Source of the DNA: a virus
Taxonomy: Duplodnaviria; Heunggongvirae; Uroviricota; Caudoviricetes
Reading direction: 5' to 3' (one strand)
DNA: 7,600 nucleotides
IMG/VR virus record: IMGVR_UViG_2529293138_000010
Coordinates: 1-7,600 of that record
The position numbers and the translations under genes are program-made. Below the pieces are notes generated by a model. The model did no database searches. It was not told where the DNA came from and saw only the letters and a list, made by a program, of their open reading frames with translations. Below are positions 1,730-6,869 of this stretch, piece after piece; positions within the stretch are counted from its first letter, which is position 1; every line of letters starts with the position of its first letter.

Positions 1730-1936
1730 ATGGAAGCAATCAAAAAAGTCATCTTTCGCCAGGAAGTAAAAAAACTTATCCACATCAAGGCAAACAGCAC
1801 GCTTCAAAGCATGATCAACGCCGGAGAATTTCCGCAGGGTTTTCGCGTTGGTTTACGCCGTCGCGGATGGTATGAGGAAGACGTAATCGCATGGATGAAA
1901 GAACGTGAGCAGGAAGCACGCGAAACGGCTGCGTAA
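1730..1936 (+). CDS. alpA: AlpA-family phage transcriptional regulator / excisionase-like HTH protein
   Basis: 68-aa ORF with GAGG (1717-1720) 9 nt upstream of ATG. Sequence LIHIKANSTLQSMINAGEFPQGFRVGLRRRGWYEEDVIAWM matches the AlpA/Vis HTH pattern (…FP…G…GW.E.E…W). Confidence 0.85.
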   Translation: MEAIKKVIFRQEVKKLIHIKANSTLQSMINAGEFPQGFRVGLRRRGWYEEDVIAWMKEREQEARETAA

Positions 1937-1966
1937 TGGTGTGAGGCATAACACGATGAACATAAC

Positions 1967-1991
1967 AAAAAGCGCCCCGTTACCGGAGCGC
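1967..1991 (-). terminator. Candidate intrinsic terminator for leftward transcription (convergent with alpA)
   Basis: On the minus strand: GCGCTCC / GGTAAC loop / GGGGCGC (7-bp stem with one G-U pair) followed by TTTTT (plus-strand A-run 1967-1971). Confidence 0.4.
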
Positions 1992-2081
1992 CCTTGCGAA
2001 CAATTAACCTGCTGCGAAAAAATTGGATCAGTGCAGGGGAATTATATCAACTGTGTGAAGAAGCGCCACAATTGCCGGATA

Positions 2082-2115
2082 ACAGGCAAAACAAAGGCCA
2101 CCTGCTACGGTGGCC
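2082..2115 (-). terminator. Candidate intrinsic terminator of the leftward small-gene operon
   Basis: Perfect 7-bp stem GGCCACC (2096-2102) / GGTGGCC (2109-2115) with 6-nt loop; on the minus strand it is followed by TTTGTTTTG (2095-2087). Confidence 0.5.
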
Positions 2116-2218
2116 ATTCGACACAAGCTACACGTTATCCCCAACGCATGAGCATAACCAACAATGCCACATTTGCGGCTGGTGGGCAAAGCGTAACCGG
2201 AAAAAAATTCCGGTGGGG

Positions 2219-2344
2219 CTATTCCTGTTCTTTGTCCTTGCGTCGCTGGCGACGTTTGATCTCATGCAGAATTTTTTCAGGTAAGAATCCTGCTGATTTA
2301 TTTTCTGGTAGCAATGGTTTGTTATCCGTCTGCTTCCTGGTCAT
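2219..2344 (-). CDS. Hypothetical 41-aa peptide (MTRKQTDNKPLLPENKSAGFLPEKILHEIKRRQRRKDKEQE), basic C-terminus
   Basis: Not in the ORF track (below its length cut-off); found by manual reverse-complement translation. ATG at 2344 lies 3 nt after the stop of the upstream 60-aa ORF (TGAtgtATG), with an AAAGG SD-like motif 7 nt upstream; same frame as the two upstream minus ORFs. A CCGGAA/TTCCGG hairpin follows the stop. Confidence 0.3.
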   Translation of the reverse strand: MTRKQTDNKPLLPENKSAGFLPEKILHEIKRRQRRKDKEQE

Positions 2345-2347
2345 ACA

Positions 2348-2530
2348 TCAACCTTTTGGTTCGTTACGTTTCCATACCTGCAATGGGCGCGTTTTCCTGT
2401 ACTCTTTTAGGAATATCTCAAGAGCAAACGCACACGGTGCGAATCTTTCTGATTCATGCTCGAGCGCCATATTTTCGTGCTCTCTTTTCGTTTTTTGCGA
2501 TGGTGTATTGGTTGATTCTTTGTTGGTCAT
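2348..2530 (-). CDS. Hypothetical 60-aa protein
   Basis: Minus-strand ORF starting 58 nt downstream of the RHH-like gene, with AGGAA 7 nt upstream of ATG. No family recognised. Confidence 0.35.
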   Translation of the reverse strand: MTNKESTNTPSQKTKREHENMALEHESERFAPCAFALEIFLKEYRKTRPLQVWKRNEPKG

Positions 2531-2587
2531 TGTGTGTTCCTGTAAAGCAATGCGCCGGAGTTCCTCACACCACGGCGCTGATAGTGA

Positions 2588-2893
2588 TTATTCTGATTCT
2601 TTGGCCTTGCGGCGCTGGAGTTCTTCACGCGCGACGGTGACGAGTTGCCCGATCTCCTCGGCTGCTTTGACACCGATTTTTTCCACCTGCGCCAGTGCAT
2701 CGAGCGAAGAAACCAGGGGATTTTCTCCGCTTCCTTCTGCCTGGCGGCGGGCGATTTCACCGCGAACGGCTGTAATCACGAAAGCGGCTATTGTTTCCCC
2801 TTCCGTTTTCGAATTTTCCATTTCCTCGATTACATCATGGGGGAAGCGGATATTTTTCATTTGCGATCTGCTGTTGATGTTTCCTGTTGCCAT
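2588..2893 (-). CDS. Putative ribbon-helix-helix (Arc/MetJ/CopG-like) DNA-binding regulator; candidate island repressor
   Basis: 101-aa ORF diverging from the palindrome-rich intergenic region. N-terminal KNIRFPHDVIEEMENSKTEGETIAAFVITAV fits a beta-strand/helix/helix RHH pattern; acidic/basic helical C-terminus. True start may be the internal MKNIRF. Confidence 0.55.
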   Translation of the reverse strand: MATGNINSRSQMKNIRFPHDVIEEMENSKTEGETIAAFVITAVRGEIARRQAEGSGENPLVSSLDALAQVEKIGVKAAEEIGQLVTVAREELQRRKAKESE

Positions 2894-2910
2894 CAGAATG
2901 TCCGGTTATT

Positions 2911-3018
2911 TTGAGGTGTGTACACATTACACCAAAAGGTGTGTTGATAAAACACTTGACACTGTAGCACACTTAAATCTAATCTGTATATACACCAATT
3001 ATTGTAGTGTATATACAG
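2911..3018. promoter_or_regulatory. Divergent control region with multiple operators
   Basis: Palindrome TGTGTACACA (2917-2926); inverted repeat ACACC-AAAA-GGTGT (2929-2942); repeated ACAC/GTGT motifs; perfect 12-bp inverted repeat CTGTATATACAC (2984-2995) / GTGTATATACAG (3007-3018) separated by 11 bp. Confidence 0.55.
2956..2985 (+). promoter_or_regulatory. Predicted sigma70 promoter for the rightward (replication) operon
   Basis: Consensus -35 TTGACA (2956-2961), 18-bp spacer, -10 TAATCT (2980-2985). The 12-bp inverted repeat begins at the 3' edge of the -10 and would cover the start site. Confidence 0.45.
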
Positions 3019-3252
3019 CAACGCCCCGCAGTGGTGGTACACATGCAGGGCGTCTAACCACCAACGATAACGAGAGTATCGAGGTAGCTATGAGAAATCA
3101 TACCACACACCCGCAAGGGCGGGACTCGCACAACCTGAATAAAGCGGGTATGAAAAACCTGTTGATCGCCACTGCCAGCCAGGGCTATGATTCATGTGCA
3201 CCTCATAAAACGGGTGCCGGGATTACCACCCCGCTGATGTCCAGGGCGATAC

Positions 3253-3275
3253 AGACGCCGCACGCGTCTTTTTTT
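3253..3275 (+). terminator. Intrinsic terminator / attenuator inside the rightward leader
   Basis: Stem AGACGC (3253-3258), loop CGCAC, GCGTCT (3264-3269), followed by a T7 run (3269-3275); about 280 nt downstream of the predicted promoter and 165 nt upstream of the first strong RBS. Confidence 0.55.
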
Positions 3276-3440
3276 GTATCGGCGCACACGCACACCTTAA
3301 CAATGGTGGGCTGTACGGGGCCGACTTCGGTCTGGCTGGTCACCTTGGACGCCAGTTGTGGTAACCCTGTACAGTCCACCGCCAGCGAGATTACCACCTC
3401 CGGCGGTGGGGATATCCCAACGTCTAAGGAGGCTGCCAAC

Positions 3441-3632
3441 ATGGCTACTACCCCTACCCTTATACATTCTCAAACTGCCTTTATCTGGCGCTTTATTGCC
3501 TTTGGCGCGTCAGAATCCCAAATCATCAACGTAACCGCCTGGACAGAACGCGAAGCGCGTAACCATTGCCCGTCAGGTTGTGTCGCTGTATTTGCCGCCC
3601 GTATTCGTCAGGGGAAAACCTATGCACAATAA
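3441..3632 (+). CDS. Small protein (63 aa), possibly Icd-like (tentative, from memory of similar islands)
   Basis: Strong SD AAGGAGG (3426-3432) 8 nt upstream of ATG 3441. Sequence MATTPTLIHSQTAFIWRFIAFG…TAWTEREARNHCPSGCVAVFAARI. The frame is open upstream to 3090, so a longer form cannot be excluded. Confidence 0.5.
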   Translation: MATTPTLIHSQTAFIWRFIAFGASESQIINVTAWTEREARNHCPSGCVAVFAARIRQGKTYAQ

Positions 3633-4086
3633 AACCACACCGGACGCAGCAGCTGCCGAGCTCACTACGCTGATGCACGCGCTGATTGATATTTCTGTTA
3701 TTGCTGACAGGGCGCATAAGCACGCCACCAGTGAAACAGAATATGCATGGGCTTTCGTTCCTCATTCGCTGGCGGTTATGCAACTTAGTGCGGATATGGC
3801 GCTGAATGAGGCCAAAGCCATCCTGATTGCTGATTGTGAAAATGGGGGGGTTATGCGTGATGATCGTTTTAATTCCCTGAAACAGGAATTTTCCGGCGTA
3901 TCTGATGATGCGGCTGATGCGCTTTCGTCAATGCCAGAACTTATTAGAGCGGCTTTTTTCTTACTTTCCACGAAAGAATATAAATCAACGGGACTTGATG
4001 TACTGAATATCGCCGCCGATTATGCGGAATATGTGGCAGAGGCGCGTTACAGAAGAAAATTTCCTGAGGATGTAAGCCATGCGTGA
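3622..4086 (+). CDS. Hypothetical protein (154 aa)
   Basis: ATG 3622 with GGGGA 6 nt upstream, overlapping the previous stop by 11 nt; the ORF-track frame opens at 3580. No family recognised. Confidence 0.55.
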   Translation: MHNKTTPDAAAAELTTLMHALIDISVIADRAHKHATSETEYAWAFVPHSLAVMQLSADMALNEAKAILIADCENGGVMRDDRFNSLKQEFSGVSDDAADALSSMPELIRAAFFLLSTKEYKSTGLDVLNIAADYAEYVAEARYRRKFPEDVSHA

Positions 4087-4317: not shown

Positions 4318-4605
4318 ATGAAACTTAAATATTCTGGCTTAACTGCCAGCGGCACCGCTCGGCCTGAAATCCGTAACGGCGATATTTACCGCGATAAATA
4401 TGGCGGCATGGTAACGATTAAAGGCGTGGCAGAACGGCGCATCACCTACCGCCGTGAAGGTTACGAATATGATTGCGTGATGCCTGTTTATCAATTCCGG
4501 CGTGATTTCACGCTGGTAGGCCAGCGTAAAGCCGTTAATCAGAAACGTGCAACAGGTTATATCCGCAAAATCCGTGAAATGCTGGTCGCAGGGGGTAAGA
4601 AATGA
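4318..4605 (+). CDS. Hypothetical small basic protein (95 aa), possibly DUF4222-like
   Basis: GGAG (4304-4307) upstream of ATG 4318; its stop overlaps the next start (ATGA at 4602-4605). Motifs YRDKYGGMVTIKGV…ITYRREGYEYDCVMP. Family assignment is from memory only. Confidence 0.55.
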   Translation: MKLKYSGLTASGTARPEIRNGDIYRDKYGGMVTIKGVAERRITYRREGYEYDCVMPVYQFRRDFTLVGQRKAVNQKRATGYIRKIREMLVAGGKK

Positions 4606-5999
4606 AACTGGCACCGAACGTAAAACGATTACCGAAAGATAAATACACCGATGCGATTATTTTTGCGGGTATTGATGCTCACTCATTCGCAGAGCATTAC
4701 ATCATTGCACAGGCCAAAAAAGCAGGCGATCCAGTCCCTCCCGTTTATCTGGGGCGTTATCAGTTAAGCGAACTGGATAACCTCCAGATTGTTGATGATG
4801 GGCGATACAGGGCGACGGTGATACGCGCCGGAAATATTGAAGAGCCGCAGCTGTTAACCATCGCCACGAAACTGGCGATCGCCGGAGTCCAGGAGGCGCG
4901 GCTACTTTCTGAAAATTTCGAATTGCTGGAGGAATGGAGCGACCAGCTTCCACGGCTTAGGGAGACATGGGAACGCGGGGAAAGCCTGAGCAACCAGCGA
5001 AAAACCACGCTACCAATGAGCGTGGGATCTGCCGGATACGACACACAACTTGATTACGTGGTTAAGGGAATTATTCCGGCTGTATCGCTTTGCAGCATAT
5101 ACGGGGCGAGCGGTTCCTATAAATCATTCCTTGCCGGATCGTGGGCGTGTCACGTTTCCACTGGCCGCCAGTGGGGATGCCGCAGGGTGGCGCATGGCGC
5201 TGTTCTCTATGTGGTTGGTGAAGGCGGTATCGGCGTTCCTCGTCGTGTAAAAGCCTGGGAGGTTGTGCACGGTGAGCAGGTGAAAAATCTGTATCTGGTA
5301 AACCGTCCCATCTTTCCGGCTGCCCCGCTTGATGTTGATGAAATGGTTATCGCTGCCCGTCAGGTGGAACGGGAAACGGGTAAACCTGTACGCATGATTA
5401 TTCTGGATACGCTGGCGCGGTGCTTTGGTGGCAATGATGAAAATGATTCCCGTGATATGGGGGCGTTTATCCGTGGGTGTGACGAACTGAAACGACGCAC
5501 AGGGGCCACGGTGCTGGTGGTTCACCATTCCGGCAAGGATGAAACAAAGGGAGCGCGTGGTTCCAGTGCATTTCGTGCTTCGCTGGATGCTGAATACCGG
5601 ATACGCAGGGAGGACGCAGGAAGCGAAGCCCTGGTTATCTCATGCACCAAAATGAAGGATGCGGAGGAACTCAAAGAAGCCGCATATGACTTACGCGTGG
5701 TGGAGCTTTTTACCGACGCTGACGGGGAGTTAATCACGTCGCTGGTGGTGGTGGATAAGCCGCGCCCTCCCGTTGAACTGGAGCGCATCGAGGAGGCTGG
5801 CAACAAGACGGAAAACCATACCGCGCTATGGGGATGCATACGTTCACGCACACAGAACGGAGACAAGTGCACGATCCCGCTGTTACGTGATGACATGAAA
5901 AAACTGGGGTACGAAATGAAAAACTTCCGGCGCTGGCTGTACAAGCTGGAAAAAGACAGGGTTATTCGTATCGATGGGGATGATGTAGCGCCGCTATAA
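4602..5999 (+). CDS. Replication-associated P-loop ATPase (RecA-fold, RepA/DnaB-like AAA_25-type helicase)
   Basis: 465-aa ORF with Walker A-like YGASGSYKSF, Walker B-like VRMIILDTLAR and downstream VLVVHHSGKD, typical of RecA-fold replicative helicases; iteron-like repeats lie immediately 3'. Confidence 0.8.
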   Translation: MKLAPNVKRLPKDKYTDAIIFAGIDAHSFAEHYIIAQAKKAGDPVPPVYLGRYQLSELDNLQIVDDGRYRATVIRAGNIEEPQLLTIATKLAIAGVQEARLLSENFELLEEWSDQLPRLRETWERGESLSNQRKTTLPMSVGSAGYDTQLDYVVKGIIPAVSLCSIYGASGSYKSFLAGSWACHVSTGRQWGCRRVAHGAVLYVVGEGGIGVPRRVKAWEVVHGEQVKNLYLVNRPIFPAAPLDVDEMVIAARQVERETGKPVRMIILDTLARCFGGNDENDSRDMGAFIRGCDELKRRTGATVLVVHHSGKDETKGARGSSAFRASLDAEYRIRREDAGSEALVISCTKMKDAEELKEAAYDLRVVELFTDADGELITSLVVVDKPRPPVELERIEEAGNKTENHTALWGCIRSRTQNGDKCTIPLLRDDMKKLGYEMKNFRRWLYKLEKDRVIRIDGDDVAPL

Positions 6000-6188
6000 A
6001 GTGAGGTGCAAAAGCGAGGGGTATAGAAGGAGGGCCAAAATTAGACCGCTACCCCTCACTTTTCGGCCTGTATACATCCTCAAAAGTGAGGGGCAAAAAA
6101 ATACTTATGAAACACACACATAGAAAAAGCGAAAATCTCAAGCGAGACGGAGCCAGACACTTTAAAAAGTGAGGCGAAAAAGTGAGAG
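5998..6188. repeat. Iteron-like repeat array (candidate origin of replication)
   Basis: AAAGTGAG(G) copies at 5998-6006, 6083-6093, 6166-6174 and 6179-6186; inverted copy at 6052-6062; variants AAAGCGAGGG at 6011-6020 and 6141-6150 region. The inverted pair CCCCTCACTTTT (6052-6063) / AAAAGTGAGGGG (6082-6093) can form a 12-bp stem. Confidence 0.5.
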
Positions 6189-6198
6189 TTTGCGAGAA

Positions 6199-6450
6199 AT
6201 GAACAAAATGCGTAGAGACAGAACAGAGCCAAAATATAAAGCGTTAGACATGACAGAGCACGCTTTAAAGGTGGCAATCAGAACGATAGACCGCCACGCG
6301 GGGGAAGGATACGCGAAGGAACATCCCGACCTGATAAGCGCATTCATGACCACAGCAGCGGCAAACTTTGCCACGCTGACAGAACGGGAGATTGCCGAAG
6401 CGGAACAGGTAACAACCATCAACGTTAAAACCGGAGAGCAGACAGCATGA
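6199..6450 (+). CDS. Hypothetical protein (83 aa)
   Basis: ORF-track frame 6169..6450 opens at a GTG inside the repeat array; first ATG is at 6199. Its stop overlaps the ssb start (ATGA at 6447-6450). Start is uncertain. Confidence 0.45.
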   Translation: MNKMRRDRTEPKYKALDMTEHALKVAIRTIDRHAGEGYAKEHPDLISAFMTTAAANFATLTEREIAEAEQVTTINVKTGEQTA

Positions 6451-6869
6451 CAGCACAGATAGCGGCTTACGGACGGCTGGTGGCTGACCCGCAGTTAAAG
6501 ACCACCAGCAAGGGTACACAAATGACGATGGCGAGTATGGCGGTCCCCCTTCCGTGCAGCCAGGCAGATGACGGAGCGGCGACGATGTGGTTATCCGTCA
6601 TGGCGTTTGGCAGACAGGCCGACGCACTGGCAAAACACCACAAAGGCGAACTGGTGAGCGTGGCGGGTAACATGCAGGTAAGCCAGTGGACAGGCCAGAA
6701 CGGCGAAACGCGGCAGGGCTGGCAGGTTATCGCAGACAGCGTAATCAGTGCGAGAACGGCGCGACCTGGCGGCAAAAAAGGCCAGCAGGGGCAGGCTACT
6801 GACGCACTGAACAGGGCAAAACAACAGGCTGGTAACGATGATCCGTATGGGGATAACATACCGTTTTAA
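6447..6869 (+). CDS. ssb: Single-stranded DNA-binding protein (SSB, OB-fold)
   Basis: Aligns by eye with E. coli SSB: GRLVADPQL…, MWLSVMAFGRQADALAKHHKGELVSVAGNMQVSQWTGQNGETRQGWQVIADSV (W/FG/KG/W-x-D-x-G-x-R pattern). Gly/Gln-rich linker and C-terminal tail DDPYGDNIPF ending in IPF. GGAGAG SD 8 nt upstream. Confidence 0.8.
   Translation: MTAQIAAYGRLVADPQLKTTSKGTQMTMASMAVPLPCSQADDGAATMWLSVMAFGRQADALAKHHKGELVSVAGNMQVSQWTGQNGETRQGWQVIADSVISARTARPGGKKGQQGQATDALNRAKQQAGNDDPYGDNIPF

Follow-up and report, generated by a model that had tools for sequence, protein, structure and literature searches.

Phage-inducible chromosomal islands (PICIs) and the Staphylococcus aureus pathogenicity islands (SaPIs) have origins of replication (ori) that lie directly 3' of the initiator-helicase gene (rep), as in SaPIbov1, SaPI1, SaPI5, EcCICFT073 and EcCIRM12579, and that comprise several short iterons in two groups, an AT-rich stretch and opposed copies (PMC6092414, PMC9371898). 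The SaPI Rep protein binds its iterons via a C-terminal winged-helix domain (PMC9371898), and rep plus ori behave as a specificity cassette (PMC6092414, PMC9371898). Among the islands of E. coli, EcCICFT073 and EcCIRM12579 have been described as PICIs (Fillol-Salom et al. 2018, PMC6092414), and a rep-ori fragment of EcCICFT073 maintained a plasmid in a rep- and ori-dependent manner (PMC6092414). Here we analyzed the first 7,600 nucleotides of a Caudoviricetes record (IMG/VR record IMGVR_UViG_2529293138_000010; the whole stretch is called the window below), in which a gene for a 465-residue helicase is followed at once by an array of short repeats. The position, the two groups of short iterons, the AT-rich stretch and the opposed copies recur in this locus, as does, by prediction, the winged helix of the initiator.

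We consider it likely that the repeats at 5998-6187 are the cognate binding sites, and in all probability also the origin of replication, of a PICI, read by the winged-helix domain of the helicase itself. We take the array as an origin because it appears to be a cognate set of binding sites and has the position and layout reported for PICI origins. The computational evidence comprises the array, its conserved position and layout across genera, a cassette of rep and array, a winged-helix fold prediction and covariation between a helicase residue and a repeat base. An earlier note on this stretch had proposed an iteron-type ori 3' of the initiator-helicase gene, in the SaPI/PICI manner; the PICI context, the array of EcCIRM12579 and the covariation, all computational, lend support to that proposal.

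The repeat array and its conservation after the helicase gene

The exact motif AAAGTGAG occurs five times in the window, four times in direct (5998+, 6083+, 6166+ and 6179+) and once in inverted orientation (6055-, covering 6055-6062), with all copies inside 5998-6186. By chance a mean of 0.14 copies is expected, and none of 200 dinucleotide-preserving shuffles contained five or more. The earlier count of at least five direct and inverted copies, plus variants, within ~190 bp starting at the ATPase stop codon is confirmed. Allowing one mismatch to AAAGTGAGG yielded a sixth copy at 6011, reading AAAGCGAGG; the copy at 6179 reads AAAGTGAGA, and a weak AAGCGAGA variant lies at 6140. With two mismatches to AAAGTGAGG, no further cluster emerged in the 7600-bp window and the window-wide count equalled chance; a cluster of a looser family pattern at 3601-3900 was rejected, comprising heterogeneous sequences and no array.

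A gap of 199 bp separates the helicase stop codon from the gene that follows, and the array is confined to it, with the first copy overlapping the stop codon itself (TAA, 5997-5999) and the last one ending 12 nt before ATG 6199, the start annotated in relatives; an alternative GTG start at 6169, given by the ORF (open reading frame) finder, would overlap the last two copies. Two sets of iterons can be discerned (Table 1), the left comprising iterons 1 to 4 and the right comprising iterons 5 and 6 together with the degenerate copy at 6140, and the tract between them has an A+T content of 74% vs. 50% for the window. In the left set, CCCCTCACTT (6052-6061) and AAGTGAGGGG (6084-6093) form an inverted pair, the opposed copies of which (6054- and 6083+) face each other across a 22-nt spacer that includes GTATAC at 6070-6075.

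A scan of one genome per species yielded 80 loci encoding relatives of the helicase (51-71% identity over aa ~127-465) in Xenorhabdus, Citrobacter, Kosakonia, Enterobacter, Kluyvera, Pantoea, Pectobacterium, Serratia, Morganella, Dickeya, Gilliamella and others. Of the 79 usable loci, 82% have some 7-mer in four or more copies within 300 bp past the stop codon, vs. 2.4% of 1686 control tiles drawn from those same loci, and the loose family pattern gave a median of 6 copies in these 300 bp vs. 0 elsewhere. The layout is conserved as well: 2-3 direct copies begin at the stop codon and are followed, after a spacer, by an inverted copy; a second spacer, of 20 nt or, in the E. coli A-class elements defined below, 22 nt, has TATATA or GTATAC at its center and leads to a direct copy, behind which come 60-80 nt of AT-rich sequence and finally 2-4 further direct copies. 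The inverted pair with its fixed TATA-centered spacer was present in 59 of the 85 loci scanned (window included), about 40-55 nt after the stop codon. Looking for the motif in related islands with cognate initiators, a check the earlier note had put forward, gave a positive result that was more specific than anticipated, in that the motif was found to covary with one residue in the C-terminal domain (CTD) of the helicase.

The inverted pair also bears on a different explanation, namely that 6052-6093 forms an RNA hairpin, acting in processing or termination after the helicase mRNA, or a DNA cruciform, with the other copies being incidental. The earlier note had raised a cruciform or RNA hairpin at this place, and the idea stands insofar as a 12-bp stem is physically feasible, being predicted as single-stranded DNA at -12.1 kcal/mol (z = -4.5), and insofar as two positions of the arms vary in a compensatory way between loci (CG, TA and GC). 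However, a U/T run is absent, no terminator was called and no Rfam family reached threshold over the array region, the sole match at permissive settings being to a microRNA family at 21 bits vs. a gathering score of 95; the RNA fold of the whole region is modestly better than that of shuffles (z = -2.5). Compared over 43 distinct sequences, arm complementarity is 93-100% and conservation of the central TATA 91-98%, but the other positions of the 18-22-nt loop are only 21-58% complementary; in addition, the direct copies, which are unable to join a hairpin, follow both the arms and residue 441 of the helicase in their changes. Because only the arms and the central TATA are conserved and the direct copies follow the arms, we prefer head-to-head protein sites, which explain the data better, and deem the hairpin or cruciform very unlikely to account for the array. 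What these alignments show to be conserved is a pair of sites, set a fixed distance apart on either side of a core that melts easily, and not an extended hairpin.

Two of the loci are of interest in their own right. In E. coli O145 RM8988-C1 (L086, NZ_CP035770.1), an IS3-family insertion at 1190-2510 sits in the middle of the inverted pair, equivalent to window ~6079, directly after GTATACAT and with an apparent 3-bp CAT duplication; it separates the putative origin from the helicase gene and constitutes a natural knock-out allele of the array. In Xenorhabdus beddingii (L006), a second array, of another class (AAGTGGGG / AAATGGGG) and with its own inverted CCCCACTT, comes right after the AAGTGAGG array, about 230-300 nt past the helicase stop (stop_end 4137), and this locus looks, from its repeats, like two tandem origins of different specificity.

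Table 1. Helicase gene, repeat array and adjoining open reading frame, in window coordinates
Feature	Position	Strand	Remarks
Initiator-helicase gene, 465 aa	4602..5999	+	Pfam AAA_25, E=3e-42; AlphaFold2 (AF2) model matches T7 gp4, Twinkle and RSF1010 RepA
C-terminal winged-helix coding region (predicted)	5811..5996	+	H404-418, H425-434, recognition helix H442-451, beta-hairpin wing 455-464
N441 codon AAC, residue just before recognition helix	5922..5924	+	Predicted determinant of the variable iteron base
Iteron 1, AAAGTGAGG	5998..6006	+	Overlaps helicase stop; equivalent position in homologous loci
Iteron 2, variant AAAGCGAGG	6011..6019	+	13 nt after iteron 1; AAAGTGAGG or a variant in relatives
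Iteron 3, inverted, left arm of head-to-head pair	6054..6062	-	
22-nt spacer with central GTATAC (6070-6075)	6062..6083	.	Proposed first melting/assembly point
Iteron 4, right arm of head-to-head pair	6083..6091	+	
AT-rich tract, candidate DNA-unwinding element	6095..6137	.	74% A+T vs. 50% for the window
Degenerate iteron-like AAGCGAGAC, weak	6140..6148	+	Relatives have AAGTGAGA or GGTGAGG here
Iteron 5, AAAGTGAGG	6166..6174	+	
Iteron 6, AAAGTGAGA	6179..6187	+	13 nt after iteron 5; 12 nt before next ATG
83-aa ORF, function not assigned	6199..6450	+	Followed by the single-stranded DNA-binding protein (SSB) gene, 6447-6869; conserved backbone, outside the swapped rep-ori cassette

Covariation of the repeats with residue 441 of the helicase

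Given that a PDB sequence search with the helicase returned no match at E<=0.01, fold prediction was needed. The protein begins with an alpha/beta domain (aa 1-126), continues with an ATPase core of the RepA/DnaB type (superfamily 4, SF4; RecA fold), within which the Pfam AAA_25 match spans aa 147-314, and ends in a predicted winged-helix domain (aa ~404-465). The full-length AF2 model is confident at aa 10-125 and 400-465, whereas parts of the core are poorly modelled. The core nevertheless resembles T7 gp4, Twinkle and RSF1010 RepA (1olo, prob 1.00) in fold, and we regard it on the strength of these matches as an SF4 RecA-fold helicase. The C-terminal 62 residues were modelled as three helices and a beta-hairpin with a predicted local distance difference test score (pLDDT) of about 90, both in the full-length model and in one of the CTD only (overall pLDDT 85). 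Foldseek matched this domain to the winged-helix DNA-binding domains of IdeR/DtxR, the MarR family, LexA, Fur and MCM/ORC (prob 0.9-0.99, template modelling score 0.6-0.75).

Homologues differ at their N-termini, which consist of the 126-aa domain in E. coli, of a Zn-ribbon and a Toprim primase in the longer, 680-700-aa proteins of Xenorhabdus and Pectobacterium, or of no extra domain; the array accompanies the helicase core and CTD under every N-terminal type. The 126-aa domain itself (window 4602-4979; alpha/beta, pLDDT ~90), to which no Pfam family corresponds, is 46% identical to the N-terminus of the EcCICFT073 Pri-Rep and 59% identical to DUF927-annotated proteins on Klebsiella plasmids, and behaves as a mobile domain joined to different initiator cores.

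The repeat frame common to the clades is AAGTG-N-GG. An A-class repeat, AAAGTGAGG(A), is found in the window, many E. coli and Xenorhabdus, a AAGTGCGGCA class in Kosakonia, Enterobacter and Kluyvera, and AAGTGGGGA, AAGTGGGGGA or AAAGTGGGC in Pantoea, Pectobacterium, Serratia, Morganella and other E. coli. Within a locus all copies, direct and inverted, change together, and the interspersed sequence can remain homologous; the 'aaaaaaatacttatgaaaca' stretch of the AT-rich tract is common to the A-type and G-type arrays of E. coli. In G-class E. coli arrays (L089, around the start of the small ORF), the repeat nearest to the downstream ATG has AGTGAGG in place of AGTGGGG; this copy may be retained for its Shine-Dalgarno sequence (GAGG) rather than for iteron function, its equivalent in the window being AAAGTGAGAG at 6179-6188.

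We aligned the CTDs by iteron class and examined the residue before the third helix, within the motif K-x-F-x-R-W-L. K440, R444, W445 and K448 are invariant, while residue 441 follows the variable base: in the 78 loci with at least 3 sites, asparagine is paired with A (30 loci), histidine (13) and lysine (27) with G, and serine (7) and glycine (1) with C, with zero exceptions, a 78/78 count that is not a P-value because the sample is phylogenetically structured. Asparagine with adenine, and lysine or histidine with guanine, are classical side-chain/base preferences. Two proteins, P0024 and P0056, are identical over the last 32 residues apart from M/V and N/H, and every iteron differs by A/G between their loci. 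In a blind test on 8 further loci, with E. coli, Salmonella and Yokenella proteins taken from a protein search and contigs retrieved by exact protein identity, all 8 matched the rule: H441 proteins were accompanied by AAAAGTGGGG arrays in 5/5 cases and N441 proteins by AAAAGTGAGG in 2/2, and one protein with glycine at this position has AAGTGCGC, a new G-C pairing.

Island context and exchange of the rep-array cassette

Pfam matches among the window ORFs comprise a tyrosine integrase (1-1242), DUF4222 (4318-4605), the AAA_25 helicase (in 4602-5999) and SSB (6447-6869), and int, the Ash/C4 region, DUF4222, rep and SSB all run rightward; Rfam places isrK and the C4 antisense RNA at 3198-3386. 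With megablast against complete E. coli genomes, related islands were recognized in about 2000 genomes, and a 301-bp query (5950-6250) matched 796 of 5426 such genomes. The best match adjoins tRNA-Pro and runs on into major capsid, head-decoration and small-terminase (terS) genes; relatives reside between tRNA-Pro/yejM-yejO or roxA/phoQ, the latter exemplified by O157 and O55:H7 strains, where a 91%-identical intergenic region belongs to an island between roxA (ycfD) and phoQ. The roxA/phoQ site and the gene order of these relatives are those of EcCICFT073 and EcCIRM12579, and the window with its relatives fits the description of a PICI as an element of about 11 kb with an integrase at the left end, unidirectional genes, phage-interference or packaging genes and a specific att site. 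The window is an EcCICFT073-type PICI. Our first guess from the capsid and terS genes, a capsid-forming PICI (cf-PICI), was dropped, as the backbone fits the classical EcCICFT073 type, and the cf-PICI papers define no ori.

The two published islands differ in their rep slot. EcCIRM12579 (NC_017656.1:1438155-1449376) has a RepA-family helicase there, followed by an identical-type AAAGTGAGG array. EcCICFT073 (L004) shares with the window DUF4222 (65% aa identity), the small ORF (84%) and SSB (72%), but its initiator is a 584-aa D5_N/DUF5906/Pox_D5 protein with a core unrelated to that of the window helicase, relatedness being limited to the first 126 aa (46%), and its intergenic region harbors GGTAGA/TCTACC repeats unrelated to the window iterons. 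Because EcCICFT073 keeps the flanking genes and has an unrelated initiator core and unrelated iterons, the exchanged unit, as gauged from these comparisons, is the helicase core plus CTD plus repeat array, with the repeats not tracking the neighboring genes.

This exchange bears on the idea that the array serves another protein or process, whether in packaging, as a pac/cos site, or through binding of the DUF4222 protein or of the product of the 83-aa ORF. DUF4222 and the 83-aa ORF, to which no function is assigned, always flank the region in E. coli islands, as such an idea would have it; yet DUF4222, the small ORF and SSB are 65-84% identical in EcCICFT073, whose repeats are unrelated, the motif follows a single helicase residue, Xenorhabdus and other loci keep the array with different neighbors, and the cos sites of EcCICFT073 have been characterized apart from its ori (PMC6092414). 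We hold a role of this kind to be most improbable.

A regulatory role is a somewhat stronger contender, though still unlikely. Here the repeats would be operator sites through which the helicase CTD or another island protein controls transcription into the ORF, SSB and capsid genes, for autoregulation or timing, with no origin role. The array lies between two co-oriented genes and ends just ahead of the next ATG, plasmid iteron arrays often double as autoregulatory sites, and residue-base covariation speaks to binding specificity, not to the consequence of binding. Against this, scans for sigma-70 promoters and intrinsic terminators over 5800-6500 found none, the array is kept beside the helicase where the downstream genes differ, and the layout right after rep, with its two sets of iterons, inverted pair, TATA core and AT tract, matches the one described for PICI origins. 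Regulation is, in addition, compatible with origin function, and a dual role is possible.

The island and its relatives yielded several further observations. An ORF at 1905-3632 (575 aa) has as its sole Pfam match Phage_ASH (aa 432-521, i.e. nt 3198-3467), which coincides with Rfam isrK (3198-3274) and the C4 antisense RNA (3299-3386); AT skew flips over 2100-2900, where relatives annotate small minus-strand genes. This long ORF is probably spurious, and what Pfam recognizes as Ash may be an RNA-gene region read in translation. Some helicase homologues are located in cf-PICI-like elements, and in E. coli AR89.2B (L087) and Yokenella regensburgei (L095) the helicase and array are found beside a ClpP-like prohead protease/major capsid fusion, the module being common to classical and cf-PICI-like satellites. 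A circular record of 16,971 bp, deposited as Klebsiella pneumoniae plasmid pKp_Goe_795-4 (L097, CP018459.1), is satellite-like, with an integrase and genes annotated as capsid, head-tail adaptor, terminase and tape-measure, and has a C-class helicase (RKSFPRWL) with a AAGTGCGGCA array in the layout of the family; it is possibly an excised, replicating island, the circular record being only suggestive of replication. Some islands with this module carry virulence regulators such as PerC.

Proposed mechanism and comparison with known replication systems

Binding, the melting site, self-loading or double-ring loading and origin activity are all inferred from the above, and we surmise that they might be connected as follows. 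The invariant residues K440, R444, W445 and K448 would contact the constant AAGTG..GG part of the iteron and N441, before the recognition helix, would read its variable sixth base. Protomer CTDs would bind the direct copies at the edges and the head-to-head pair (6054- / 6083+), so that two helicase assemblies of opposite orientation would come to lie on either side of the 22-bp GTATAC spacer, beside the AT tract. The duplex may then open at the TATA-centered spacer or in the adjacent AT tract for SF4 rings to load, and the island SSB, encoded two genes downstream, could coat and stabilize the single strands. That the helicase might load itself is proposed by analogy with SaPI Rep and P4 alpha. 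If the array is the cognate target of the helicase, the protein or its CTD is expected to prefer the A-type AAAGTGAGG over the variants AAAGTGGGG and AAGTGCGG.

Several points weigh against an origin read by the helicase: 1) the published functional test was of EcCICFT073, whose initiator differs from this type; 2) the full-length model is mediocre, with a mean pLDDT of 66 and a predicted template modelling score (pTM) of 0.42; 3) the Foldseek E-values for the CTD, 0.05-0.2, are non-significant alone, as is usual for so small a domain; 4) a clean inverted pair is absent in about a quarter of the homologous loci; 5) the residue-base table was text-mined with a simple regular expression; 6) the loci behind the covariation are related by descent, though N/H switches occur nonetheless between near-identical E. 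coli CTDs, and these switches are the strongest evidence for the rule; and 7) to our knowledge, SF4 helicases normally need a separate initiator or loader. With these points in mind, we lean, less firmly than for the array itself, towards a broader proposal, i.e. that a widespread class of self-loading SF4 initiator-helicases operates in enterobacterial satellites, that a one-residue/one-base code (N=A, H/K=G, S/G=C) sets specificity and that the origin fires from the head-to-head pair with the TATA core. Were this true, satellites would change replicon incompatibility or specificity via a single substitution plus the concerted change of all iterons.

As genome annotation, an origin at this place is what one would expect in a PICI. 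This arrangement is known from PICIs and SaPIs, and a published island, EcCIRM12579, already has a helicase of this type listed as its 'Pri-Rep'. What appears to be unreported in searchable text is an SF4 RepA-type initiator with its own winged helix, a head-to-head pair with a fixed TATA spacer across genera and the single-residue rule; a literature search with the motif string and with PICI, RepA and iterons found nothing relevant, and the iteron sequence AAAGTGAGG may already be published in Fig. 2a of PMC6092414, an unreadable image of E. coli PICI iterons. The analysis locates a likely origin and origin-recognition determinant for a module present in hundreds of E. coli genomes and many other Enterobacterales, and the residue-base rule offers a direct way to test how satellites diversify their replicons and escape cross-talk between them. 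The data also suggest that an SF4 helicase can be its own initiator, with orthogonal replicons as a possible use.

Among PICIs, EcCIRM12579, included in the 2018 paper, has the helicase type and array of the window. In contrast, the SF4 core of the window (RepA/DnaB/T7 gp4-like) differs from the SF3/SF6-like cores of SaPIs and from the D5_N/DUF5906 core of EcCICFT073, which is of the P4-alpha/poxvirus D5 kind; Rep2, a homologue of SaPIbov1 Rep, was assigned to SF6, and SaPI Reps have been likened to SF3 and SF6 helicases (PMC9371898). The iterons of the window are also longer (9-10 nt vs. 5-6 nt in SaPIs), and its opposed copies surround a short TATA spacer with the larger AT tract to one side, whereas those of SaPIs are described around the main AT tract.

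The satellite P4, likewise an enterobacterial phage satellite, resembles the window in combining a helicase and a C-terminal origin-binding domain in one polypeptide (alpha) with repeated sites (ori/crr), and the window carries a P4/P1-type C4 antisense RNA. P4 alpha unites priming functions, a hexameric helicase and a C-terminal origin-binding domain in one chain. This is partly discussed in PMC6092414. In contrast to the window protein, alpha belongs to SF3 and has no sequence similarity to the window helicase core, its repeats are different, and ori and crr lie away from the gene end.

With IncQ plasmid RSF1010, the window shares a homologous helicase core (AAA_25; fold match 1olo) and an origin built of iterons. 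RSF1010 itself relies on a separate initiator, RepC, for iteron binding, and its RepA helicase lacks a domain for DNA recognition; the window helicase, unlike RSF1010 RepA, has its own predicted winged-helix domain. A Pfam scan of the window ORFs revealed no RepC/RepB or separate initiator family, and the three-protein replicon of RSF1010 (helicase RepA, primase RepB, iteron-binding initiator RepC) was rejected as a model for the locus on both counts. The oriV of iteron plasmids (RepA/pi/TrfA type), with DnaA boxes beside the iterons and a dedicated Rep initiator devoid of helicase activity, was rejected as well, in that no DnaA box (TTATNCACA, up to 1 mismatch) is present inside 6000-6198 and the sole candidate binder is the helicase itself. 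Finally, T7 gp4 and Twinkle have neither a sequence-specific C-terminal winged helix nor an adjacent iteron array, but the 680-700-aa homologues from Xenorhabdus, Pectobacterium and Serratia show Zn-ribbon, Toprim and SF4 helicase in the order of gp4, and in the E. coli helicase of the window the primase part is replaced by the unrelated 126-aa domain.

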